DNA of 64,000 nt from an uncultured Verrucomicrobiae bacterium (GTDB taxonomy: Bacteria > Verrucomicrobiota > Verrucomicrobiia > Chthoniobacterales > UBA10450), in the NCBI GenBank assembly GCA_963772365.1, contig CAVYXA010000005.1:128001-192000 (forward strand). Reading direction: 5' to 3'. The position numbers and the translations under genes were made by a program. Below the pieces are notes generated by a model. That model made no database searches. It was given only the letters and a program-made list of their open reading frames with translations, and was not told the origin of the DNA. This document shows, piece after piece, positions 39,954-57,287 of the stretch (the stretch's first letter is position 1; every line of letters begins with the position of its first letter).

Positions 39954-39976
39954 CGGGACGGGCAATATGCCAAGTA

Positions 39977-40004
39977 AATGACGAATGTCGAATAACGAAT
40001 GCCG
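39977..40004. repeat. Four tandem 7-mers (AATGNCG-like)
   Basis: AATGACG AATGTCG AATAACG AATGCCG. Confidence 0.7.
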
Positions 40005-44917: not shown

Positions 44918-45032
44918 TTAGCCACAGATGAACACCAGCCTTCGTCTGAAACTACGGCTTGGCAAGTGGATGAAACACGGATTTCCAGAACAGAATTCTC
45001 ATCCGTGAATATCCGTGTTAATCCGTGGCTAA
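44918..45032. repeat. Gene-less CACGGAT inverted-repeat element (MITE-like)
   Basis: TTAGCCACAGATGAACAC[32 nt]GGATGAAACACGGAT...ATCCGTGAATATCCGTGTTAATCCGTGGCTAA. Confidence 0.85.
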
Positions 45033-46720
45033 GTTCTTTCGCTCTTCTCCAGCAATTCCCGAATCAATTTCATTCGCTTTCGTTCTTTCGGACTGCGCGC
45101 GATCTGCGCGATCGTACGGTTCATTCGACGGCTCCAATTTCCACTCGCCGCCGTTCCAGGAATGTTGAATCGATATTTGCGCGCCAGCAGATCTGTAATC
45201 ATGACCACCGCGATCCACGATTCGCTCTGGAAAAGCGCCTTCATGATCGCCGAATAAAAATCGTTCTCGTAGCTGATCGGTTCTTCCCGTGCCGAAACCC
45301 CGGCGAATTCGGCAATCTTGTTCAACGCGTCTCGCGCCTGGTCCGAAGTCGATGTGGTCCGCTCGACCGCTTCTTCCCACAACTTTCGCAACGGTTTGTG
45401 ATCGTGCGTGGCATACGTCGCAACGGAAAGCCGGTCGTACTCCGAACCGGGAGTAACACGTCCGCCATAGACTTCCCATTGCGGGATCTTGAAACCGGCG
45501 ATGCCGAGAGAGCGCAAACTTGGTCGCACATAATCGGGCACCGTCCCCAGATCTTCGCCGATCACCCGCTCATTGCCGGATTCCTCAAGAACGACGCGCA
45601 AGTATTTCTCTCCCTCCTGCCGGTTTGCTTCGCACTCCCGCGGATTCGAATCGTCTCGCGGAACAAAATGGGGCGCGCGGCCGCCGGTGCGTTCGAGCAT
45701 GTCATTCCACTCCAGATCTAAAAATTCCTTGTTCCGCGATGGTCGCCACGGGAACGCATAGATCCGATAAAATCCAAGCACATGATCGATCCGGAAAAGA
45801 TGAAAGATACGCCGGACGCCACGCACGCGCAGACGCCACCAATCGAAGTTGCGCGACCGCATCACATCCCAGCGATAGAGTGGGATCCCCCAGTTTTGTC
45901 CCCATTTTTGGGTAAACTCGTCGTCCTTGAAATATTGTTCCGGTGGCGCGCCTCCCGACCAGTCGAGCGCAAATTCGTCAGGCCGGGCAAAAACATCCGC
46001 GCTGTAATAACTGACCCCGAATGGGATGTCGCCCATCAAGGCCACTCCGCGTTCGTCGGCAAAATTTTTGATGTCGCGCCATTGCTCGTGCGCGATCCAT
46101 TGCACGTATCGAAACAAATTCTGTCGTTGTTCGAATCTTCGTCGTCGATCTTTCGGCAAACCGCGAAACCAGTCGTGTGCGGCAGCCGTGGTAGAAGTGT
46201 TCCATTGGTCCCAATTTTCTCGTTCGCCGTTCTCCTCCATCAGGGTGCGAAATAACGCATAGCCATCGAGCCAGTCGGTCTCCTCGCGGCAAAAGTCGCG
46301 GAACGCCGATTGTCGATCCTCGCCCGCTCCATCGCAAAACCGAGTAAAGGCTTTCTCCAGCAAGCGCCGCTTCAATTTCTTGACCGGCGCATATTTTACC
46401 GGGCAGCGCCGCAGTTTCGTTAGATCGACATCAGCGATAGCCGCCGAGAAATCCTCCGAAGTCAATTCCTTCGGGCTGCCCGGCGCGAGGTGAATCGTCG
46501 TCGGCTCGATCGCCATTGCACTGATCGCGTTGTAAGGACTATCATCGCCGCCGATTTCGTTAATCGGCAACAGTTGGATCAACTTGAATCCGCTCTCCGA
46601 GACCCAATCAATCAGTTGCCGCAACGTTTCCACGTCGCCAATCCCGAGATCGTCTTCCCGCCGCAGAGCGAATAATGGCGCCAGGACTCCCGCGATTTTT
46701 TTCTCCGGAGAAAGATTCAT
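45029..46720 (-). CDS. malQ: 4-alpha-glucanotransferase (GH77)
   Basis: QLLPINE, SPY, MGDIP, GAPP, GQNWGIP, RIDHVLG, GEDLG, ATHD. Confidence 0.93.
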   Translation of the reverse strand: MNLSPEKKIAGVLAPLFALRREDDLGIGDVETLRQLIDWVSESGFKLIQLLPINEIGGDDSPYNAISAMAIEPTTIHLAPGSPKELTSEDFSAAIADVDLTKLRRCPVKYAPVKKLKRRLLEKAFTRFCDGAGEDRQSAFRDFCREETDWLDGYALFRTLMEENGERENWDQWNTSTTAAAHDWFRGLPKDRRRRFEQRQNLFRYVQWIAHEQWRDIKNFADERGVALMGDIPFGVSYYSADVFARPDEFALDWSGGAPPEQYFKDDEFTQKWGQNWGIPLYRWDVMRSRNFDWWRLRVRGVRRIFHLFRIDHVLGFYRIYAFPWRPSRNKEFLDLEWNDMLERTGGRAPHFVPRDDSNPRECEANRQEGEKYLRVVLEESGNERVIGEDLGTVPDYVRPSLRSLGIAGFKIPQWEVYGGRVTPGSEYDRLSVATYATHDHKPLRKLWEEAVERTTSTSDQARDALNKIAEFAGVSAREEPISYENDFYSAIMKALFQSESWIAVVMITDLLARKYRFNIPGTAASGNWSRRMNRTIAQIARSPKERKRMKLIRELLEKSERT

Positions 46721-46723
46721 TCC

Positions 46724-47190
46724 TTAGCCACGGATGAACACGGACGAAACACGGATTAAAAGATCAGGCGTTTGTACTCAACTTTGAGTCGGCCGAAGTT
46801 GATTAGCAGACCAACCTTGAGCCCGGTTGCTTTTAGCTCGTTCAGCAATTGCGCCTCGTCCCGCTTGTCGTACTGCGGATTTACTTTGATTTCGACAGCA
46901 ACGGAATCGACGACTATCAAGTCGGCATCATAATCTCCAACGACGACGCCTTTGTATTGGACTTGAATGCGTTTTTCAATTTCTGCAGCGACACCGCGAT
47001 TGATCAATTCCACTTGCAATGCTCGCTGGTAGACTCGTTCCAGAAATCCATATCCAAGTTGCTGGTGAACTTCGAATGCAGCTCCGATGATCGCTTCGGT
47101 AGTAGCCCGGTGTAGCAGTTTGTCCGGGTGTTCGTCCTGGATTTCTAACATTCCGTTATCCGTGTTTCATCCGTGTTCATCCGTGGCAAA
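46724..47190. mobile_element. GxxExxY gene bounded by 33-bp inverted repeats (putative mobile unit)
   Basis: Left arm 46724-46756; right arm 47158-47190; 31 of 33 positions match. Confidence 0.6.
46756..47151 (-). CDS. GxxExxY protein (PD-(D/E)XK nuclease family)
   Basis: 131 aa; GFLERVY, ADLIV...VEIK, AQLLN, GLLINFG. Confidence 0.92.
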   Translation of the reverse strand: MLEIQDEHPDKLLHRATTEAIIGAAFEVHQQLGYGFLERVYQRALQVELINRGVAAEIEKRIQVQYKGVVVGDYDADLIVVDSVAVEIKVNPQYDKRDEAQLLNELKATGLKVGLLINFGRLKVEYKRLIF

Positions 47191-47192
47191 AA

Positions 47193-49193
47193 TCAAGATC
47201 GGCTTACCTGCCAATCTTCGACGAGATTGTTTGGAATTTCTTTGAGGAACCGGGATGGCCTTTGGAAGACGTCGCCATAGCCGGCATTCAATCGCATGTG
47301 CGGATACGTGAGATACAGCTCGTCTTTCGCGCGGGTGATTGCCACATAGAACAACCGCCGCTCTTCTTCGAGCGCTTCACGAGTATCGAGCGAACGGCTG
47401 CTGGGAAACATTCCGTCGGTGAGCCAAATGACGAATACCGAATGGAATTCCAATCCTTTGGCCTGATGGACCGTGGAAAGATTCACCGCTTCTTTCTCCG
47501 CGGTCTGGTTCGGCGCAGCCTCAGCATCGACATTGCTGATGAGCGCGAGCTGGGCCAGAAATTCGTTTACATTCTTGAACTGACGCGAGAAAGCCGCCAG
47601 CTGGTTCAAATCTTCCTTGCGCAGCTCGTAATTGGTGAAGTTCACTTTCGCATAGTCATCGTAGATCGCTTCGACAACAGAGGTGATCATTTCCGAGGGA
47701 GGAATCGGCTGACCGCCCGGCGCGATCTCATTCAGGGTGTGCGCCAGTTGCGTCCAGGATTTCTTCGATTTCGCCGGCACATTCATCGCCAGAAATTCCT
47801 GTCCGAAGTTCTGGCCAGAATCGCGTATTCCGCTCTCCCATGTATTCCATAAATTCTCGGCGGTTCGATTTCCGATTCCGGGGAGCAACTTGACCATTCG
47901 CTTAAACGCAACTTCATCCCGAGGATTCGCCACGAATCGAATGAACGCCGTTACATCCTTGATGTGGGCCTGCTCGAAAAATCGGATCCCACTTGTGATC
48001 TGATAGGGAATGCCACGGCGGGAAAGCTCGAGCTGCAACTCGAGCGCGTGATAATGCGCCCGATATAACACCGCGATCTCGTTAAGATCGACATTCTCAT
48101 CGCGCAACTCGAGAATCCGTTGAGCCACGAATTGCGCCTGCTCACTCCCGTCGTTTAAGGCAACGACCGCAGGCTTGACCTCACTTGATTCCCGCGTCGG
48201 TGAAAGATTTTTCCGGAACTGCTCGACATTCGCAGCAATCGCCGCGTTTGCGACCTCCAGCACCTCTGGCACGCTCCGGTAATTCATCTCAATCTTGAAC
48301 ACCTGTGCGCCCGGATAGCGTTTCGGAAATTCGAGAATGTTCTTAAAGTTCGCGCCTCGCCAGGAATAGATCGACTGCGCGTCGTCGCCGACAACCATTA
48401 CGTTGCGATGTTCCGCTGCGAGCGTGTCGATGAAGTCGGCCTGGATCTTGTTCGTGTCCTGATATTCATCAACGAGGATGAATTGAAATTGCCGCCGATA
48501 AATCTCCGTGATCCGCTCGTGCTGTTTTAACATCGACAATGTCTTCTCCAGCAGGTCGTCGAAATCGACCGAGTTAGTGGCCTTTTTCTTCTTCTCGTAA
48601 CGCGCCTGGATATCTTTGATCTTGTCCAGTAGCGGGAGGAAATACGGAAATTTCTCGGCGAGCAATTCCTCGATTGGCGTTTCCGTGTTTACGACGAAGC
48701 TGAAAATTTCGGCCAGCACATCGCCTTTCGGGAACCGGATTTCCCTGGGATCAATTCCAGCGCTGGCCACTACAGTGTTGATCAAATCTTTTTGATCTTC
48801 ACGGTCCATGATGGTGAAGCCGCTGGAATAACCGAGCGCGCTGCCATGACGTCGCAGCATGCGATTCCCGATCGAGTGGAACGTCCCGCCCCAGATTCCA
48901 CTCGCATCAAAGGGCAGCAGATTCGCCACGCGATCGAGCATTTGGCGCGCGGCCTTGTTCGTAAAAGTGAGCAGCAAAATATTTCGCGGATCGATTCCGT
49001 TCTCGAGGAGATACGCCACGCGATATGTCAGCGTCCGTGTTTTGCCCGATCCCGCGCCAGCGATGACGAGCAGTGGCCCTGGCGGCGCGGTCACGGCCGC
49101 GTGCTGTTGCTCATTCAATTCCGCCGCATAATCGATATGGATCCCGCCGTCGCGGGATGCTGGTGCGTGTTGGAGCGTGTATTGGCGAGACAT
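47193..49193 (-). CDS. UvrD/PcrA-family ATP-dependent DNA helicase
   Basis: AGAGSGKT, LTFTNKAA, VDEYQD, VGDDAQSIY, TVHQAKGLE, EERRLFYVAITRA. Confidence 0.95.
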   Translation of the reverse strand: MSRQYTLQHAPASRDGGIHIDYAAELNEQQHAAVTAPPGPLLVIAGAGSGKTRTLTYRVAYLLENGIDPRNILLLTFTNKAARQMLDRVANLLPFDASGIWGGTFHSIGNRMLRRHGSALGYSSGFTIMDREDQKDLINTVVASAGIDPREIRFPKGDVLAEIFSFVVNTETPIEELLAEKFPYFLPLLDKIKDIQARYEKKKKATNSVDFDDLLEKTLSMLKQHERITEIYRRQFQFILVDEYQDTNKIQADFIDTLAAEHRNVMVVGDDAQSIYSWRGANFKNILEFPKRYPGAQVFKIEMNYRSVPEVLEVANAAIAANVEQFRKNLSPTRESSEVKPAVVALNDGSEQAQFVAQRILELRDENVDLNEIAVLYRAHYHALELQLELSRRGIPYQITSGIRFFEQAHIKDVTAFIRFVANPRDEVAFKRMVKLLPGIGNRTAENLWNTWESGIRDSGQNFGQEFLAMNVPAKSKKSWTQLAHTLNEIAPGGQPIPPSEMITSVVEAIYDDYAKVNFTNYELRKEDLNQLAAFSRQFKNVNEFLAQLALISNVDAEAAPNQTAEKEAVNLSTVHQAKGLEFHSVFVIWLTDGMFPSSRSLDTREALEEERRLFYVAITRAKDELYLTYPHMRLNAGYGDVFQRPSRFLKEIPNNLVEDWQVSRS

Positions 49194-49236: not shown

Positions 49237-51510
49237 TCAACGGACCGCGACGCGAGACGAAGCCGCCCGTCCGTGATCGTCGAGAGCGGTGATCTCATAA
49301 TCGCCAGTGCCCGGCTTCCATAAACACACGTCACCGCACGCCGCCGTTCCGATCAAAGTTTTGCCCGCAAACCAGTAAATTTCGCGAACATCGCCGTCCG
49401 TTTTCGCTTTTAACGGAATGCTTTTCGAGGATGTGAGTACAATTCGTTGTCCCTCGGCCGGCGAAATGATTCGCGGAGGAGTTCCATCGCGAGCCGCGAG
49501 TTCAACTGACGAGCCGGGCAGAAATGGCGGCGGCAATTTCCGAGGCAATCCGGCGCTGGCAAAGAGCGTCATAAATTCGCTGGACCAGAATTCGTAGATT
49601 TCATGGCGCAAAACGTGTCTGCCGTCATCAACCGGCAGGCGCAATCCGGTGGCTACATCGACGAGCACTTCGCGATGAACATCGCAGGTTTTAATCGGCG
49701 AAACTCCGGGAATGAACCAGCCCTCGACGCGCTGCGTGCAGAACGGCCCGGGCAAATCGCCCGAGACAGCGCAAAATTCCACGCGTTTCAGATTTGCACC
49801 GGCCAGCGGCAAATGCGGTTCGTTAGGCTGTGGCCAGGTCGCGCGCAGACTATCGATGATCCGGAACAGCAGCGGAGCGGCTGCGCTTCGCCCGATGAAG
49901 TTTGGATTGGCGCGGCCATCGAAGTTCCCGATCCAAACAGCAAGCACATAATGATCGAAGATCGCCACCGACCAGGCATCGCGAAAACCGTGCGATGTTC
50001 CAGTTTTCCAAAAGACCGGCGCCATTCGTGTCGAATCCGCGCAGGCCATTTCCGGTCTGGGCTGATCCAGCATTTCAATGGTAAGAAAAACAGCTTCGGG
50101 TGAAATGAGGCGCGACGCGTTCGCGGCAATCGGATCGCTGCGAACGCGGCGGAGTGGACGAAGTTCTCCTTCATTCGCCAAAGCGGCGTAGAGTCGAACC
50201 AGGTTCTCCATCGAAATTTCTGCCCCGCCAAGCGGAAGCGTTAGGCCATAGGTCGATTCCGAACCTGCCAACGGAACACCGGCGCGGCGGAGAAATTCGT
50301 AGAAGGTCGGGTGCGACAGTTTCGAGGCCAGTTCGATTGCGGGGAGATTTCGGCTGCGGGCGAGCGCGTCGGTTGCGCGAATCGGGCCGAGAAACTCGCG
50401 ATCGAAATTCTCCGGATTATAATCGCCGAAACTTCGCGGCGCATCGGCCAGGATCGACAACGGATGAATCAAACCTTGATCGATCGCGAGCGCGTAAACA
50501 AACGGCTTTAGTGCCGAGCCCGGCGAGCGCGGACTGCGTGTTCCGTCGACCTGTCCCTGAATTGCCGCGTTGAAAAAATCGGCGGAACCGATTTGCGCGA
50601 GCACATCCATCGTGCGGGAGTCGATCAGCAATGCCGCAGCGTTCTGCATTCCGCGATTTCGATTCATCCGAATGTAACCGGCGACACGGCGCTCGATCAG
50701 TTGCTGTCGATCCAAATCGAGCGTGGTTACGATCGCTCGCTCGTTTCTGCGTGTTATCAGAACTTGCTGAACAAAATGTGGCGCTAAAAATTCAGGCTCT
50801 GTCTCTGCTCGCGGCCGGAACAAAATTGCCGCATCGCTGTTATGTCGGGTGCGCCGGGAGAGAACGGCATTCAGCGCGTGATTCTCGCGATCGACCAGCA
50901 GCGCGCGTCGCGAAGGACTTTGCGGAATCATGCTCAAAGCGATCGATTCAGGCCGGCTTAAACGCGCGGCAGGCTTCACGAAGTAGAATTCGCTCGCCGC
51001 GGCTGCGCCTTCGATGTTTCGCCCATACGGCGCGAGATTCAGATACGCTTCGAGAATTTCGTCTTTCGAGTAATGACGTTCGATTTCCAGAGCCAGCAGG
51101 ATTTGATTTAACTTTCCAGCGAATGTTCGCGTGTGCAGATGAAAACGGAGACGCGCCAGTTGCATCGTGATTGTCGATGCTCCCATGCGCGGAGCGCCAC
51201 GCAACAAACCAACTGTGGAGCGAAATAAGGCGACCGGATTCACGCCCGGATGACGCCAAAAATATTTATCTTCGTATCGCAGCGTCGCACCGATCAGTTC
51301 CGGGGAGATGTCACGCAGCGGTGTAAGGATTCGAAATTTCTGGTCGGAAGTGAGCGTGACTCTGAGCAATTTGCCATTTCGATCGCGAACAGATTGCGAG
51401 AACGAAACACCGTCGAGCAACTGTGGCTTTGGCAATGCGAGCCAGAATGCAACAGCTAATACGGCGAGAAATAAGAGCGACCGCAGCGTCTTCTTCAATC
51501 GCATGTTCAT
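49237..51510 (-). CDS. pbpC: Penicillin-binding protein 1C
   Basis: EDKYF, GASTITMQLAR, GSALKPF, KTGTS; follows the A2M gene. Confidence 0.93.
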   Translation of the reverse strand: MNMRLKKTLRSLLFLAVLAVAFWLALPKPQLLDGVSFSQSVRDRNGKLLRVTLTSDQKFRILTPLRDISPELIGATLRYEDKYFWRHPGVNPVALFRSTVGLLRGAPRMGASTITMQLARLRFHLHTRTFAGKLNQILLALEIERHYSKDEILEAYLNLAPYGRNIEGAAAASEFYFVKPAARLSRPESIALSMIPQSPSRRALLVDRENHALNAVLSRRTRHNSDAAILFRPRAETEPEFLAPHFVQQVLITRRNERAIVTTLDLDRQQLIERRVAGYIRMNRNRGMQNAAALLIDSRTMDVLAQIGSADFFNAAIQGQVDGTRSPRSPGSALKPFVYALAIDQGLIHPLSILADAPRSFGDYNPENFDREFLGPIRATDALARSRNLPAIELASKLSHPTFYEFLRRAGVPLAGSESTYGLTLPLGGAEISMENLVRLYAALANEGELRPLRRVRSDPIAANASRLISPEAVFLTIEMLDQPRPEMACADSTRMAPVFWKTGTSHGFRDAWSVAIFDHYVLAVWIGNFDGRANPNFIGRSAAAPLLFRIIDSLRATWPQPNEPHLPLAGANLKRVEFCAVSGDLPGPFCTQRVEGWFIPGVSPIKTCDVHREVLVDVATGLRLPVDDGRHVLRHEIYEFWSSEFMTLFASAGLPRKLPPPFLPGSSVELAARDGTPPRIISPAEGQRIVLTSSKSIPLKAKTDGDVREIYWFAGKTLIGTAACGDVCLWKPGTGDYEITALDDHGRAASSRVAVR

Positions 51511-54500
51511 TCCGTCACGCTGATCCGTCCGCCGACGCCCACTCCTTTGATATTGCGTTCGTACATCGAGCCCGCGAAAACCGGTGGAACGACAAACTCG
51601 CCGCGATTATCGGGCTTGATCTGATAATTGATCTCAAGCACTCGCTTGGACACGGTCGCGAAAAAAACGGCGCGATCTTCGCGAAGATCGACGTAATCGA
51701 CGCCCGCGATGGAGGAAATGCCCGGCTGCAACGATGTTGTTACGACTTCAAATCCGCCTGGCAGAAGATCGATGATGGCGACATTGCTGATCCATTCGCG
51801 ATTCACGCTCCGCACATGCAAGCGAACGTGAACCGGTTCGCCCAATTTCGTGCGCGTCACTGGCTTATCGTTTTTGTCGAGCAGCTCGCGATAAACTTCC
51901 AAGCCTTCCGTCACCGCCTTTTGCGGAACAGATCGATCGAACCCGGCTTCGATCACCTGGAAAAACGTACCCAGCGGATTCGTTGCTCCTGCGCTTTTGA
52001 AACGCAGCGCAGTCGCTTTTTCTGAAAATGCGGAGCGCAGCATCATCTTCGCGCCGGTGGCCAAAGTCGTCTCACGTTTGTCCGTACGGACGTCGGCGAT
52101 GGTGAGCGTCGGCAGATTTTGCGCGACAACATGCGAATATGTTTTTAACGCCTGCACCGCATATGCCGCCGAAAGCGTGTTGAAATCGCCTTCGCCGATC
52201 GGTTGCAGAATTTGTTCGAATTGCTGCGCTGAAAGTCTTTTCAGGCGCGACGGAAATTCACGCCCGAGCACGGCGACATATTGCGAGTTGGTCCCGAGAG
52301 GCTGGCAGAAATCATCGTAATCACGCGCGGCACGATTGTCGATCTTGAACTGGTCGATCAGACTCTCGGCATCGCTATCCTTGTGCAAGAGCTTGAGCGC
52401 TCCGGCGAGATAGACACCGGTGAGATCGTTCTCCCAGTTGTCTTCGTGATTCTTGTCGAGGTAATCGCGGAGATTGAGAATGTAATTTGTGGTGATGACC
52501 CCTTCGCGCGTGAGCACGTAAATCGCATAGGCAATCGTGCGCGCTTCCGCCAGATCCGATGGTTCGCTCGCGACCATTTTCCGGAGATAACGCAAACCGC
52601 TGGCGAACATCTCTGGAGGCGGCGGAAAACCGGCGACCTTTGCTTCGCTCAGAAAATGCATCCCGTAAGCGGAAACAAAGCTGATCTTTTCGCCGGTCTC
52701 CGGAGCCCAATAACCAAATGCGCCTTGATCGTTTTGTCTGCGCTGGAGCACTCCAAATGTGCGCTCGACCTGCTTGTTAATTTCCGCGCGGCTCAGTCCG
52801 AAATCGGCTTCGTCGGCCAGCAGCAGCCGGCAAAATGCGCCGCTAACGAGCTGCTCGGTACAACCGTGCGGGAAATTTTTTAGGTAAGCGTCGAGTCCGC
52901 GGGCCAGGCCAAGCGGCAGCGCGGAAGCAGTCGCGTCGCGTTTCGCAAACTCGGAATAAATCTGGCGCGTAATCGGAATTTCCGTGCTGCCCTTCTTAAG
53001 GTTTCCGCTACGGACGTCGGTCACGAATGGCGTAGCTGGCCGAATGCTGAGTGTCGCGCGTCGATGCGTTTCGATCCCGTTTCGGCTCGCAGTGAGGTTG
53101 ATCTCGCCCGAGCCGAGAACATCATTTACGCGAAATCGAAACGTTGCGCTTTGCTCCCGTCCTTCTGCAATTTTCATTTTCTGGCTGGCATTGCCGAGGA
53201 TCGACAAGTGCGGAGAAGTTTCCGCGCGTAGCGCGATCTCGGCATCCGCGCCTGAACCTTCGACGTTGTTCGCCACCGTCACGCCAACTTCAAATTCATC
53301 CCCCGGCGCCGCTAAAACCGGGGCGCTCGGCGTTATGACGAACGGCCCCCGAATCAACGTTTCGCGATCCGCTGATCCCGTCGTTTCGTTCGAAACGGCG
53401 ACGGCCATTATTTTTAAGGCGCCGTCAAAGAAATCAGGCACGTCATAGACGACTTCGCGTCGCGTTGTGTCGGCATCGACAATTCCAGACCAAAACACCA
53501 CCGGCTTTTCGGTGACGCGCTTGAATGGATTCAGCTTTTGGACTTCACCGCCGTCACCGCCGAAAGCCGAGAGCGATCGCAACAGGGAAAATTCGGGAAT
53601 GATAAGATCGACAATCTGCGCAGTCTCGACTCCGAGCGCGCATTTGCGGAAGAAGTAGGCGAGCGGATCGGGCGTTTTGTAATTCGTGACCTGTAAAATT
53701 CCCTGATCGACCGCGAAGATGACGATTTTGCCCGGCCGATCTGTCTTGTAGCCGATCCGTAGCGGCTCGCCCGGTTTTGATTTGGCAGCGGTATCGATGT
53801 CGATCTTGAGGCGGCGCTTCTCAACATTTGCCGTAAACGGAACAACGCCATAGCTCAGCGGGCTCACAAAAATCTCCTTCGAATCGAGCGCCCGGACAAA
53901 AGCCACATTGACATAACCACTTCCTTCGAAATCAGCTGGCAGCCGAATGTGCTGAACGCTGCTGGCGCTGCTCGTCTCGAACCAGGCAAACGCATAAACT
54001 TTTTCGCGCTCGATTGTGATGAGTCCACTCCCGGCGTAGGGCGCCGTCACGCTCACTGCAATCTCGTCACCGGCCCGGTATTCTTTTTGATCTAGCTTGA
54101 TTTCGAGCTCAGCGTTTTTCTCGAGCGCATGGGCGACGCCTTGGCCGACGACGGAGAAATGAACGTTCGCAAGCGCGCGATTGTGATCGTCGCGCAGGTC
54201 TAGGATGTAATTGCCCGGCTCATGGGTCGGCAGCGTATAATGCAAACCAGTCGCAGGAATCACGATCTTTTCCGTGGACGTCGGGCGTTCGCGCAGGACC
54301 GATTCGTAAACGTAATTTCCGTTCTCCTGTTTCTTGAGAACAGAAACGTACTCCTGGGCGATAACGTTGACCGTGACATTTTCGACGGCGATCCGATTGA
54401 GCTGCGCGTCGACGGCAATCAAATCCACCGCCCGCGGTTTGCTCATGTCGATGTAACGGAGATCGCCGCCGGTCTTGCAGCCGACGACATACGGCAGCGC

Positions 54501-57287
54501 CGAGACGAGCGCGCTAACATAGCTGGTCACGCTGCGGCCGCCTTCGCTTTCGAATCCCTCGGCGATAAAGCGGACCGAATAGGTCGCGTCAGCAAATCGT
54601 TCCAGTTTCAAATCGAACCCAGTGCTTCCCTGTTCGTTCGTCTTGGTTTCGCCAAGATCGACAGTTTGCTCTTCGCGATATTTCTTTTCGTCCAGCAATG
54701 GATCGAAAAATGTGTAGTCGCGAAATTCCGGAAACGAAAACGCGGCCGGGGCGAGCTCGATTTTTCCGGTGACACGGCGATCGGTTGCCGGTGTTCCGTA
54801 AAGGTTGGCCAAAAGAACCGACGCATGAACGTTATCCGGGCTGATCCAGCCGCGTGGGGCGCTTTTGGAAAGGCGCGCCTCGATCTTCATCCGATCGGGC
54901 AGAAACTCTTTTACGTTTGCAGTTGTCGATCCCAACAAGGTCGCACGCCTGTTGTTCTTGATGAGATAAACATTGATCGTGTAAAGGCCGGTGGGGGACT
55001 CGTTAGCCGTGAGATAACTTAGCTCGACAAAACCGCTGTCGGGCAGCGTGATCTTTTTGGTTTGGACGCGCAGATCGCGTGCATCGACAACCTCGGTTTC
55101 AACTGGCAGATCTTTCAGGTTTCCATGCCAATTGCGCTGTTTCACCACCGCGCCGATGTGGATCTCGTCGCCCGGCCGATAAACGCCGCGCTCAGTGAAA
55201 ACAAACGCGTCCAAACCGTCAGGGCCGATGTTCTCCGCGCCGTCGATATCGAATCGCGAAAAATTCAGGACGCGATCGTCGGTCGCAAATGGTAGGAAGG
55301 AGACGTCATCGCCGTAGCGCGCGACAAATGCGACCGGTGCTTTTTCCCGCTCAGATTTTTCCACCGATGGAAAAGAGCAATGTCCACCGGTGTCCGTTTG
55401 AGCCGACTGAATGGGGACACCATTCTTGCCCAGGATCTCAACGGTAGCGCCACCGATCGGCTTTCCGGTTTTGATCGAGATTAGGAAAACGTCGCTGCTG
55501 CCGCCGTTGTTTTTCTTACTCAGGATTCCGATATCGGTGATGAGGAGAAATCGACTGTCTCTCACCGATTGAATCGTTTTTTTTGTGACCGGGTCCCAAC
55601 CACGTGCAGTCAGGAAAAATAAACCACGCTCACTTCCGCCGTCCGCCGGCTTGGTCAAGTAGGCCGAGAAATTGAATGCGGAATAATTCGCTTTCCATTT
55701 GTCTGGGGCCGCGATCGGCTGCTGTTCCAGACCGATTCGTGAAATGTTTTCCTGGTTAAACAAACCGGGATCGCGAAATTCCGGCTCTTCAAATTTTCCT
55801 TCGGTCTGACTGACGAGATGATTGATCTGGGTCGTGGCTACGCGGGCGATTTCGTATTCGATCGCCGTCAGGCCGCGCGAGCGGATCGACAATTTTCGTT
55901 CGCCATTCAATGCCAGCAATCCACCCTGGCCTTCGATTTGAACCTCGCGCGGCAGCTCTGGAACATCGACAACTGCGTTGTGATCTTCCACCAGCGGGTA
56001 ATCGCCGAGCGCGCGCACTCCTTTTGCGATCCGGATGTAAAGCTCGCCATCAGTTTCCACCCGCACCCGAAATGCGTGTTGTCGATCCTGCGCTTTCTCC
56101 GACGGAATTGCGGTGATCTCAATTGATTTGGCTTGATCGAGGACTTGATCGGGAACATCTGATGCGCTCTTCCATTTCGAATTTTCGCTCACAGATTCCT
56201 CGTTAGATTCCTCCGATTCCTGCGAGTCAGTGTCGGCCGATTCGTCTTGGTCAGCAGCTTCCTCTGCTCGTTTTGGCAGCAGCCAAACTTTTACGGCTTT
56301 TGCCAGATCGCGCGTGGCAATGTCTGCCGTTGTTGTGACAATGAGGACTTGTTCCGGCTCGCCATTCTTGTTTCGAACGATTATGCCGGAAACGGAATCG
56401 ATCTGGAACGCCGTGGCGATGGACGGGATTCGCACTTTCTCCTCGACATCCTCATTTGTTTGCGCACCGCCTTGAGTTGTGCGAACGCCTTTGCTCAGCA
56501 CGAGCTTCATGAAATCCTCCCGCTCTGGCAGTGTGACTGGCGAACTGCGCAGGTAGGCCAGCCGGTTATGCAGTCCGTAGTTAATATTGAAATGGGGCGC
56601 GCTCTCCGATGGTGGAAACACATTTGAGCCACCGATCATTTCCAATTGAATGTGTCGATCCAACTCGCCGGGCTCGACTGCATGGGTGAGCTCCAGCGTC
56701 GCGGTTACTTCCCGCCGGGTTGGGTTGGTCGGGTCCTGATAGAGTTCGAGCTGTTTTATCGCGATCGTGAACGGCGGCGTCTGCGCCTCATATTCCAGCC
56801 GCTCCATCCGTATCTGGTTCGGAAAAAATTTCTTGTCGAAAATGATCCGGAATTTTTTGTCAGCAGGCCAATCCTGATTGGGTTTAAAGAAGAGATGTTT
56901 GTCACCCGCCCACATCCACTTGCCAGCCGTCGGCGGATCGAGCCGCACTCCTCGGAGATCGGTCTTTTTCAGATCTTCCAGACGCGCCACGGAGTCGCTG
57001 AATCGGATATCGAGCGTGGGAAATGTTAACTCTTTGTCCAACTTCGTTACCGGAATCGGTTCGACAGTTACCGTGACGTAACGCGGTTTTGGCCGATGCT
57101 CGTACCAATTCAAAGTCCAGGCTGCCCCGGAAAGGAACAGAAGAACGAGGACGACTACCGCAGCGACCATGCGCGGATGTCGCTCCAATGCCGCGCGGAC
57201 ACGATTGATCCAGTCGGGCGGACGCCACGCGATATTGCCGAAGATGTGAGCCGGAAGTTGCCGACAGAACACGAAAAAGTTTTTCAT
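51507..57287 (-). CDS. Bacterial alpha-2-macroglobulin
   Basis: 1926 aa; ERGVYRPG, AVDQGIL, thioester motif GCTEQ, DLLPGGFE, REDR. Confidence 0.93.
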   Translation of the reverse strand: MKNFFVFCRQLPAHIFGNIAWRPPDWINRVRAALERHPRMVAAVVVLVLLFLSGAAWTLNWYEHRPKPRYVTVTVEPIPVTKLDKELTFPTLDIRFSDSVARLEDLKKTDLRGVRLDPPTAGKWMWAGDKHLFFKPNQDWPADKKFRIIFDKKFFPNQIRMERLEYEAQTPPFTIAIKQLELYQDPTNPTRREVTATLELTHAVEPGELDRHIQLEMIGGSNVFPPSESAPHFNINYGLHNRLAYLRSSPVTLPEREDFMKLVLSKGVRTTQGGAQTNEDVEEKVRIPSIATAFQIDSVSGIIVRNKNGEPEQVLIVTTTADIATRDLAKAVKVWLLPKRAEEAADQDESADTDSQESEESNEESVSENSKWKSASDVPDQVLDQAKSIEITAIPSEKAQDRQHAFRVRVETDGELYIRIAKGVRALGDYPLVEDHNAVVDVPELPREVQIEGQGGLLALNGERKLSIRSRGLTAIEYEIARVATTQINHLVSQTEGKFEEPEFRDPGLFNQENISRIGLEQQPIAAPDKWKANYSAFNFSAYLTKPADGGSERGLFFLTARGWDPVTKKTIQSVRDSRFLLITDIGILSKKNNGGSSDVFLISIKTGKPIGGATVEILGKNGVPIQSAQTDTGGHCSFPSVEKSEREKAPVAFVARYGDDVSFLPFATDDRVLNFSRFDIDGAENIGPDGLDAFVFTERGVYRPGDEIHIGAVVKQRNWHGNLKDLPVETEVVDARDLRVQTKKITLPDSGFVELSYLTANESPTGLYTINVYLIKNNRRATLLGSTTANVKEFLPDRMKIEARLSKSAPRGWISPDNVHASVLLANLYGTPATDRRVTGKIELAPAAFSFPEFRDYTFFDPLLDEKKYREEQTVDLGETKTNEQGSTGFDLKLERFADATYSVRFIAEGFESEGGRSVTSYVSALVSALPYVVGCKTGGDLRYIDMSKPRAVDLIAVDAQLNRIAVENVTVNVIAQEYVSVLKKQENGNYVYESVLRERPTSTEKIVIPATGLHYTLPTHEPGNYILDLRDDHNRALANVHFSVVGQGVAHALEKNAELEIKLDQKEYRAGDEIAVSVTAPYAGSGLITIEREKVYAFAWFETSSASSVQHIRLPADFEGSGYVNVAFVRALDSKEIFVSPLSYGVVPFTANVEKRRLKIDIDTAAKSKPGEPLRIGYKTDRPGKIVIFAVDQGILQVTNYKTPDPLAYFFRKCALGVETAQIVDLIIPEFSLLRSLSAFGGDGGEVQKLNPFKRVTEKPVVFWSGIVDADTTRREVVYDVPDFFDGALKIMAVAVSNETTGSADRETLIRGPFVITPSAPVLAAPGDEFEVGVTVANNVEGSGADAEIALRAETSPHLSILGNASQKMKIAEGREQSATFRFRVNDVLGSGEINLTASRNGIETHRRATLSIRPATPFVTDVRSGNLKKGSTEIPITRQIYSEFAKRDATASALPLGLARGLDAYLKNFPHGCTEQLVSGAFCRLLLADEADFGLSRAEINKQVERTFGVLQRRQNDQGAFGYWAPETGEKISFVSAYGMHFLSEAKVAGFPPPPEMFASGLRYLRKMVASEPSDLAEARTIAYAIYVLTREGVITTNYILNLRDYLDKNHEDNWENDLTGVYLAGALKLLHKDSDAESLIDQFKIDNRAARDYDDFCQPLGTNSQYVAVLGREFPSRLKRLSAQQFEQILQPIGEGDFNTLSAAYAVQALKTYSHVVAQNLPTLTIADVRTDKRETTLATGAKMMLRSAFSEKATALRFKSAGATNPLGTFFQVIEAGFDRSVPQKAVTEGLEVYRELLDKNDKPVTRTKLGEPVHVRLHVRSVNREWISNVAIIDLLPGGFEVVTTSLQPGISSIAGVDYVDLREDRAVFFATVSKRVLEINYQIKPDNRGEFVVPPVFAGSMYERNIKGVGVGGRISVTE

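Follow-up and report, generated by a model that had tools for sequence, protein, structure and literature searches.

In homing, the alleles that already carry the endonuclease gene are immune. Insertion sequences and MITEs have terminal inverted repeats around one ORF and gene-less derivatives. The free-standing homing endonucleases of phage T4 (seg, mob) are described as carrying out intronless homing; their genes keep to a fixed intergenic position flanked by conserved genes, several of them have no promoter, and they spread by gene conversion with co-converted flanks (PMC2988022). RAYTs, which are associated with REPINs, are described as vertically inherited with a tree that matches the host tree (10.1101/2021.07.10.451892). 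Cargo can also be swapped by recombination at flanking core genes without any enzyme of the element, according to an account of chromosomal hotspots (PMC5635113). The locus examined here combines features of these systems around a gene of the GxxExxY family (PF13366), the function of which is listed as unknown and for which many transfers are noted (PMC3424549).

The cassette lies between pcrA and malQ in a window of 64,000 nucleotides, the whole stretch of DNA analyzed, from an uncultured Verrucomicrobiae bacterium. Its features, in window coordinates, are as follows.

46756..47151, minus strand: GxxExxY gene, 131 aa, predicted minimal PD-(D/E)XK fold
47158..47190, minus strand: upstream arm, in which the CACGGAT unit occurs three times at spacings of 10 and 11 bp; the GCCAC at 47187 is the outer end, beyond which a T-rich pad runs to the pcrA stop
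46724..46756, plus strand: downstream arm, inverted; outer tip at 46727; overlaps the stop of the gene
47193..47240, minus strand: last ~45 nt of pcrA/uvrD, which co-change with the cassette in swapped relatives (extent estimated from relatives)
46666..46720, minus strand: first ~55 nt of malQ, which co-change in some swaps and not in others (extent estimated from relatives)
44921..45029, no strand assigned: gene-less hairpin with the same arms as the window element, between malQ and mdh

The sequence agrees in every detail with an initial annotation that had bounded the 131-aa gene by arms at 46724-46756 and 47158-47190, with three repeat units per arm at 10-11 bp spacing, the stop codon overlapping the left arm and the ATG 6 nt from the right arm. 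The arms are 33 nt each, 94% complementary and separated by 401 nt, and they constitute the longest inverted repeat within 45500-48500. Each contains the CAC(G/A)GA(T/C) unit three times (left-arm starts at 46729, 46739, and 46750), and a 16-nt arm core occurs three times in the window at up to two mismatches, against 0.05 expected. Profile matches identify the neighbors as a UvrD/PcrA helicase and malQ, the pair between which the unit had been said to be wedged, followed by mdh; beyond the downstream arm on the minus strand, an AAGGA stretch leads at once into the malQ start. A promoter and terminator scan gave chance-level hits only, and the cassette appears promoterless. By eye, we saw no target-site duplication at the window element, as annotated, or at the gene-less copies. 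The terminal GC was considered as such a duplication and rejected because it belongs to the inverted repeat, and the inverted bases at the ends differ in other clades. Upstream of pcrA (49237-57287, minus strand) are two long ORFs of 757 aa and 1926 aa, which by eye we take to be penicillin-binding-protein-1C-like and alpha-2-macroglobulin-like, respectively.

The protein belongs to the GxxExxY family to which it had been assigned, scoring above the curated cut-offs of both TIGR04256 (E 9e-37, 126 bits; cut-off 35) and PF13366 (E 2.5e-35, 121.8 bits; cut-off 22). The family is large, with at least 7,982 matches among 8,000 candidates scored, and 106 of 121 genomes of the host's bacterial family contain a match. 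In a profile search, the window protein matched PF13366 only, with no known transposase domain; a search of the PDB by sequence returned nothing significant, and Atlas matches were confined to GxxExxY clusters. The predicted catalytic residues E38, D77, E87, and K89 are all present, the last three being invariant across 31 sequences, and Q101 is paired with E105 where Tyr is usual. The tyrosine of this QxxxY motif is replaced, mostly by glutamate, in both clades with CRCRGAT arms, a link that we regard as a lead only. The structure model is confident (pLDDT 89.7) and points to a PD-(D/E)XK core fold. Cas4 SSO0001 is the best match, at Z 8.7 and with an rmsd of 3.6 across 99 residues, but BpuSI, AF1548, and 3ijm tie with it, and Hjc and lambda-type exonucleases rank next; because the top Z values tie with restriction-enzyme folds, the modeled fold would be compatible with endonuclease, exonuclease, or resolvase alike and does not give the activity. 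Cas4 enzymes contain a four-cysteine Fe-S cluster. Membership in that family was rejected for the window protein, which has no Cys and no Cas4 profile match and resembles Cas4 in fold only. With Cas4, lambda exonuclease, and Hjc (PDB 4ic1, 3syy, 1gef) it shares the core fold and the E, D, ExK, and Q catalytic-type motifs; unlike them, it is much smaller and lacks a cysteine cluster, and identity is under about 22%.

Six GxxExxY genes, one of them frameshifted, are present in the window's genome. All have inverted arms of three units at 8-11-bp spacing, each gene with its own, different repeat unit, and all are positioned co-oriented and stop-to-start between genes; judging from translations, the other five presumably adjoin nuoK–nuoL, metK–ahcY, two ABC permeases, nuoF–nuoG, and cdsA–dxr. 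These five genes and the gene-less hairpin at 44921-45029, across malQ from the window element, had been overlooked in the annotation. A census of arm pairs in this genome yielded 17, against none in three block shuffles. All five long pairs enclose GxxExxY genes and no other cargo, and the remaining pairs are gene-less. Gene-less hairpins of the window type number about 11 (7 clean pairs and 4 with one worn end), and none were found in this genome for the two arm types that lack a gene in it. The nuoF–nuoG copy (G000:C1:1337148-1337505) is the frameshifted one, yet four gene-less hairpins of its arm type occur in the genome.

The arms themselves can be interrupted. In the hairpin at 44921-45029, an unrelated 32-nt repeat is inserted in unit 2 of one arm (44936-44967), and unrelated short repeats also lie inside arms at L024 (malQ–mdh), L193, L231, L257, and L168; those in the window, L024, and L193 are 30-32-nt repeats of one type, each in unit 2. 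Arms may be preferred targets or break sites. Just upstream of mdh at the malQ–mdh junction (L001-L030), the right arm's outer tip survives even at loci where the rest has given way to other repeats, as though it had been recruited for translation start.

Of 110 loci from the family, 3 lacked the pcrA end, and the pcrA junction was examined in 107 genomes. The gene is present at pcrA–malQ, as a full, broken, or fragmentary copy, in 29 of the 107. Sorting by regular expression gave 23 full genes including that of the window, 3 broken genes, and 3 fragments between arms; among gene-less junctions, 10 hairpins of related arms, 21 TGACGAA-type, 12 other REP-like, and 4 CACAAAG-like repeats; and, for the remainder, 14 empty or short junctions, 11 others, and 6 without malQ. 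Two loci were misfiled by these classes: L090 contains a two-gene insert, and L112 a gene copy that has decayed. Relatives include empty junctions, the comparison proposed at the outset, as well as gene-less hairpins. To account for where the gene is present, a host tree of 94 tips, which omits 13 rows with short flanks, needs 20 changes or more. Among the 23 full-length copies, 8 are truncated or have a conserved residue changed, and 6 more copies are broken or fragments. A fixed intergenic site between conserved genes together with patchy presence is thus found here as it is for homing endonuclease genes.

Unrelated occupants share the junction. Hairpins built of the 7-nt TGACGAA unit, found at pcrA–malQ in 21 of the 107 genomes, supply the pcrA stop codon in several of them, and one TGACGAA arm-like stretch lies within the window (39976-40001). 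At L090 (G098) and L131 (G122), the junction contains an insert of ~530 bp with two small genes that by eye resemble an addiction-module pair.

Close homologues were sampled from GTDB and metagenomes using the query's own peptides, giving at least 115. Among the matches listed, 106 of 115 adjoin pcrA or malQ (97 both, 9 one); another 6 lie between other genes, and the last 3 are too short or misplaced to judge. Arms are present on both sides in 108 of the 115. These neighbor and arm counts indicate that the window clade keeps a home site and sometimes moves, its arms moving along. New sites are occasional (L161, L174, L228, L252, L255, L267, L289), and each clade keeps a home site, so the unit is not mainly dispersed, which goes against spread in the form that the annotation had proposed. 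The gene is co-oriented with both neighbors in 69 of the 75 loci in which both were called. The window copy has no near-identical donor among the close homologues listed, the best being about 81% identical in nucleotides. Viral contigs contributed 1 weak match and 4 loci. At L179 (1240-1950), a site away from pcrA, a second copy of the upstream gene's final ~33 nt follows the cassette, which suggests that microhomology led the insertion. Two close homologues, P0013 and L175, are labeled Candidatus Binatus and Limnocylindria; mis-binning is likely, because L175 has Chthoniobacterales-like pcrA and malQ, and we claim no cross-phylum transfer. Terminal inverted repeats around an ORF, gene-less derivatives, and occasional new sites are shared with insertion sequences and MITEs. 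Unlike an insertion sequence, the cassette has no known transposase domain, no visible target duplication, and no multi-copy expansion of identical elements, and it is strongly faithful to its home site.

A comparison of 169 distinct junction loci revealed near-identical hosts with differing cassettes (L208/L147/L209 versus L238; L199 versus L234; L196 versus L175/L248; L221 versus L237 versus the gene-less L061) and, at looser host identity, L210 versus L243 and L171 versus L071. In the first two sets, 100-nt bins show flanks that are mostly 94-100% alike out to as far as 1.4 kb in either direction, against mostly 67-76% within the gene. The converse is seen in L178 versus L184, where the cassette is 99% alike and host flanks mostly 74-96%. 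On the pcrA side, divergence extends into the gene for about 30-45 nt, and on the malQ side for 0-55 nt. In the 30 nt that directly precede the E-D-W motif of pcrA, mismatch is 0.188 in 17 swapped pairs versus 0.048 in 35 unswapped pairs and 0.057 distally. Near malQ, it is 0.176 for swapped versus 0.121 for unswapped pairs in the wider set and 0.147 versus 0.010 in the closest pairs, where the averages still contain zeros from L188/L194, a coordinate artifact dropped as a swap. The cassette is thus transferred laterally into an allelic site with co-conversion of its flanks, clearly on the pcrA side and more weakly on the malQ side. Relative to the window copy itself, co-conversion is not visible in 60-150-nt bins because the relatives are saturated.

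Real swaps occur in 4 of 13 close host clusters, and several of the other clusters are near-duplicate deposits. Most of the pairs are metagenome contigs, which can be chimeric, and the pairs are not independent; chimeric assembly is a possible source of swaps, but it would have to place both crossovers directly beyond the arms and arrive at one identical allele in several samples. A crude count of junctions near pcrA, taken between relatives about 80-95% alike, found differences at 18 of the 25 that bear repeats and at 16 of the 43 that do not. Because junction turnover is general in the family, presence and absence alone are weak and unspecific, and a homing-like interpretation draws its weight from tight tract ends, nesting, direction, and the fidelity of clade, site, and arm.

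Nested copies were found in 6 of 144 loci. In each, an old arm and an FPH-type gene stub broken at codon 17-18 are followed by a whole newer cassette, always of the LLHRA subclade to which the window copy belongs. The stubs fall into two lengths and are 62-93% alike overall; between the length groups, they are 62-71% alike versus 80-92% for the inner genes, and this lower similarity suggests that the same codon was invaded independently two times or more. At eight loci (five distinct sequences), the last four codons of the older gene and its arm abut the new right-arm tip exactly, and L213 shows both the left stub and the right remnant. Nested copies join at the arm tip, with no homology in the flank, and always in the same direction. 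Nesting is the sole directional evidence and the hardest point for passive recombination. Gene-for-gene swaps and nested copies both indicate that gene-carrying alleles are not immune.

The median dN/dS at pcrA–malQ is 0.093 (20 full genes; 82 of 190 pairs unsaturated), and the gene is under purifying selection. Its non-synonymous distances correlate poorly with those of its neighbors (0.16 with pcrA and -0.12 with malQ, versus 0.64 between pcrA and malQ). In AU tests, the gene rejected all five tested host clades (p 6e-10 to 0.04), which were picked from 10 starred host branches after both trees had been seen, whereas none of the five was rejected on either 393-nt control slice, of malQ or pcrA. 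One host clade, L115+L116, is also present in the gene tree. Identity of the protein to that of the window is 66% in the host's sister, G032, and 91% in the more distant G084. Judged from these trees, descent of the gene at pcrA–malQ is not vertical; of the vertical conservation at this locus that the annotation had weighed, the part concerning the site stands and the part concerning descent does not. At other sites, AU tests rejected 5/5 clades at nuoK–nuoL versus 0/5 on the control, 3/4 at metK–ahcY versus 1/4 on the control, 1/2 at the ABC site, and 0/2 at cdsA–dxr. One genome flagged as unpublished (G003) is among the 23 full copies and the 20 tree rows and enters one metK clade test.

A further 95 distinct GxxExxY loci, almost all of them in the host's family (G008 contributes 2), were compared with shuffle controls, and 92 have arms above these; with the 108 of 115 listed close homologues, this bears out the arms anticipated around the genes of relatives. 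These 95 loci sort into site groups with one arm type per group. On a tree of 110 proteins with 6 arm classes, the class changes 7 times versus at least 57 times when shuffled, and arm type tracks protein clade, including at new sites, as expected from the co-variation of protein and arm that the annotation had suggested examining. Since linkage alone predicts such co-inheritance, the pattern reveals a stable unit and not binding. The sequence comparisons support gene and arms as one unit. Nine genomes have gene-less hairpins of the metK type at pcrA–malQ, and five of the nine also contain the gene of that clade, against 10 of 91 others (Fisher p 0.003, with kin not independent and L010 misfiled in the sorting); because they occupy this site, hairpins seem to move without a gene inside. 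Homologues were found in 7 of 72,556 plasmid records. Among these seven plasmid or chromid homologues from other phyla, two, both from Bacteroidota, have arms of the window kind; direct repeats are seen in two more, a single unit pair in another, and no significant inverted repeat in the remaining two. The concern that homologues generally lack arms does not hold for the loci sampled in the host family; beyond the phylum, arms are not universal. In L351 (a Fusobacteria plasmid) and L356 (Prevotella), GxxExxY genes with flanking direct repeats form a cassette-array-like layout.

We assign a probability of roughly 0.55 to the reading that this is a homing-like cassette, with its home site at pcrA–malQ kept and its occupants exchanged between lineages, likely driven by the putative nuclease. 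In such a mechanism, DNA bearing the cassette would enter a relative, where the protein would bind arms of its own type through their three phased units; cutting or resection would follow, either at the arm tips or at the recipient junction. The cassette would next be joined in by host repair, which would use short homology at the end of pcrA and the beginning of malQ, or a few arm-tip bases, and, unlike in classical homing, an occupied site would not be immune. Expression would come from the host transcript at little cost, because the cassette seems to have no promoter and lies within core operons in their orientation, stop-to-start. The gene-less hairpins would represent non-autonomous derivatives mobilized in trans; decay into both broken genes and gene-less hairpins is seen in the comparisons. 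We more tentatively propose that GxxExxY cassettes are their own class of chromosomal homing element, in which an arm-reading 131-aa nuclease uses one core-operon junction per clade, newer alleles cut and displace older ones at a fixed codon with less than 60 bp of homology, as an allele-against-allele drive, and hairpins are mobilized. The cassette resembles T4 seg and mob, as these are described in PMC2988022, in placing a nuclease gene at a fixed intergenic site with co-changing flanks. It differs in residing in a bacterial chromosome, in its 131-aa PD-(D/E)XK core in place of GIY-YIG or HNH, in its modular inverted arms, tracts of tens of bases, and gene-less hairpin derivatives, and in displacing occupied alleles of the same family; cleavage by the cassette protein is only predicted.

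A somewhat unlikely alternative is that the gene is cargo kept for a host benefit such as defense or repair, with the arms an operator or mere accompaniment. The low dN/dS would fit, as would the general turnover of junctions, the sharing of pcrA–malQ with unrelated repeats and two-gene inserts, and the existence of hotspots without mobile elements (PMC5635113). Like the hotspots of that account, the locus is a core-gene junction with fast content turnover and recombination at the flanks. However, its cargo is a single nuclease family with its own ends, and swaps end within about 55 nt of the cassette in flanks that are mostly 94-100% alike over 1.4 kb, with very short tracts. Directional nested invasions that meet at the arm tip without flank homology, frequent decay of copies, and several clades, each with its own core-operon site and arms, argue further against cargo kept for the host.

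The annotation had favored a RAYT-like element, which here would be a largely sedentary, domesticated enzyme that copies gene-less hairpins around the genome. We consider this doubtful. The dispersed hairpins linked to the gene are indeed REPIN-like, and their absence for arm types without a gene in this genome, the concentration of metK-type hairpins in genomes with that clade's gene, and the rarity on plasmids all agree with it. Inverted arms around a variable spacer, extragenic location, and a small nuclease gene at a fixed site are likewise shared with REPIN-RAYT systems as described (10.1101/2021.07.10.451892). Unlike the RAYTs of that account, the gene is exchanged between lineages and invades old copies, its tree conflicting with that of the host. 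The enzyme is not an HUH/Y1 tyrosine transposase (only PF13366 matches, with a PD-(D/E)XK fold), the gene lies inside the arms, the arms are tandem units and not palindromes, and several GxxExxY clades coexist per genome at low copy number, with hairpins in the tens and not hundreds, the 11 or so copies here being far below typical REPINs. The analogy holds for the unit of gene and arms and for the gene-less hairpins, and fails for descent and for dispersal as the main activity; hairpin copying may be a side activity of a homing-like cassette and not an alternative to it.

It is improbable that the arms are moved by another, unlinked enzyme and that GxxExxY is a passenger captured long ago. 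Linkage alone would account for co-inheritance, other repeats do insert into arms, and inverted arms are absent in 5 of the 7 distant homologues; against this, the long arm pairs of the window's genome enclose no cargo other than GxxExxY genes, arm class changes far less often on the protein tree than under shuffling, and purifying selection acts on the gene. Scarcely credible is an RNA-level element, on the model of ORF-bearing rRNA intervening sequences, whose arms would pair in mRNA with the loop processed out or stabilized: the sense strand does fold into a long stem (z -5.0) and the gene is mostly co-oriented with both neighbors, but selection on an RNA stem was rejected for want of strand bias (no sense-strand excess of G-U-compatible mismatches, 48 vs 55 in the window clade and 59 vs 91 in other clades), arm cores are fixed in sequence, no Rfam match was obtained, and DNA-level swaps would be left unexplained.

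By analogy, the homing-like cassette would be closest in working to a free-standing homing endonuclease with REPIN-like derivatives, and it misses a defining feature of each of these and of insertion sequences. No description of a GxxExxY gene-plus-arms element or of its homing was found in the literature searched (main texts, non-subscription), and the element is apparently real and undescribed. The GxxExxY family thereby gains a testable role and candidate substrates (the arms, the junction, and the codon-17 site of older alleles), for which natural before-and-after allele pairs are available. A very small nuclease that places a cassette via short homology could be of interest to genome engineers. 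If true, the homing-like reading would explain a class of intergenic hairpins in these genomes and, if the enzyme drives the swaps, would offer a case of homing in bacterial chromosomes without an intron or intein, in which occupied sites are re-invaded.
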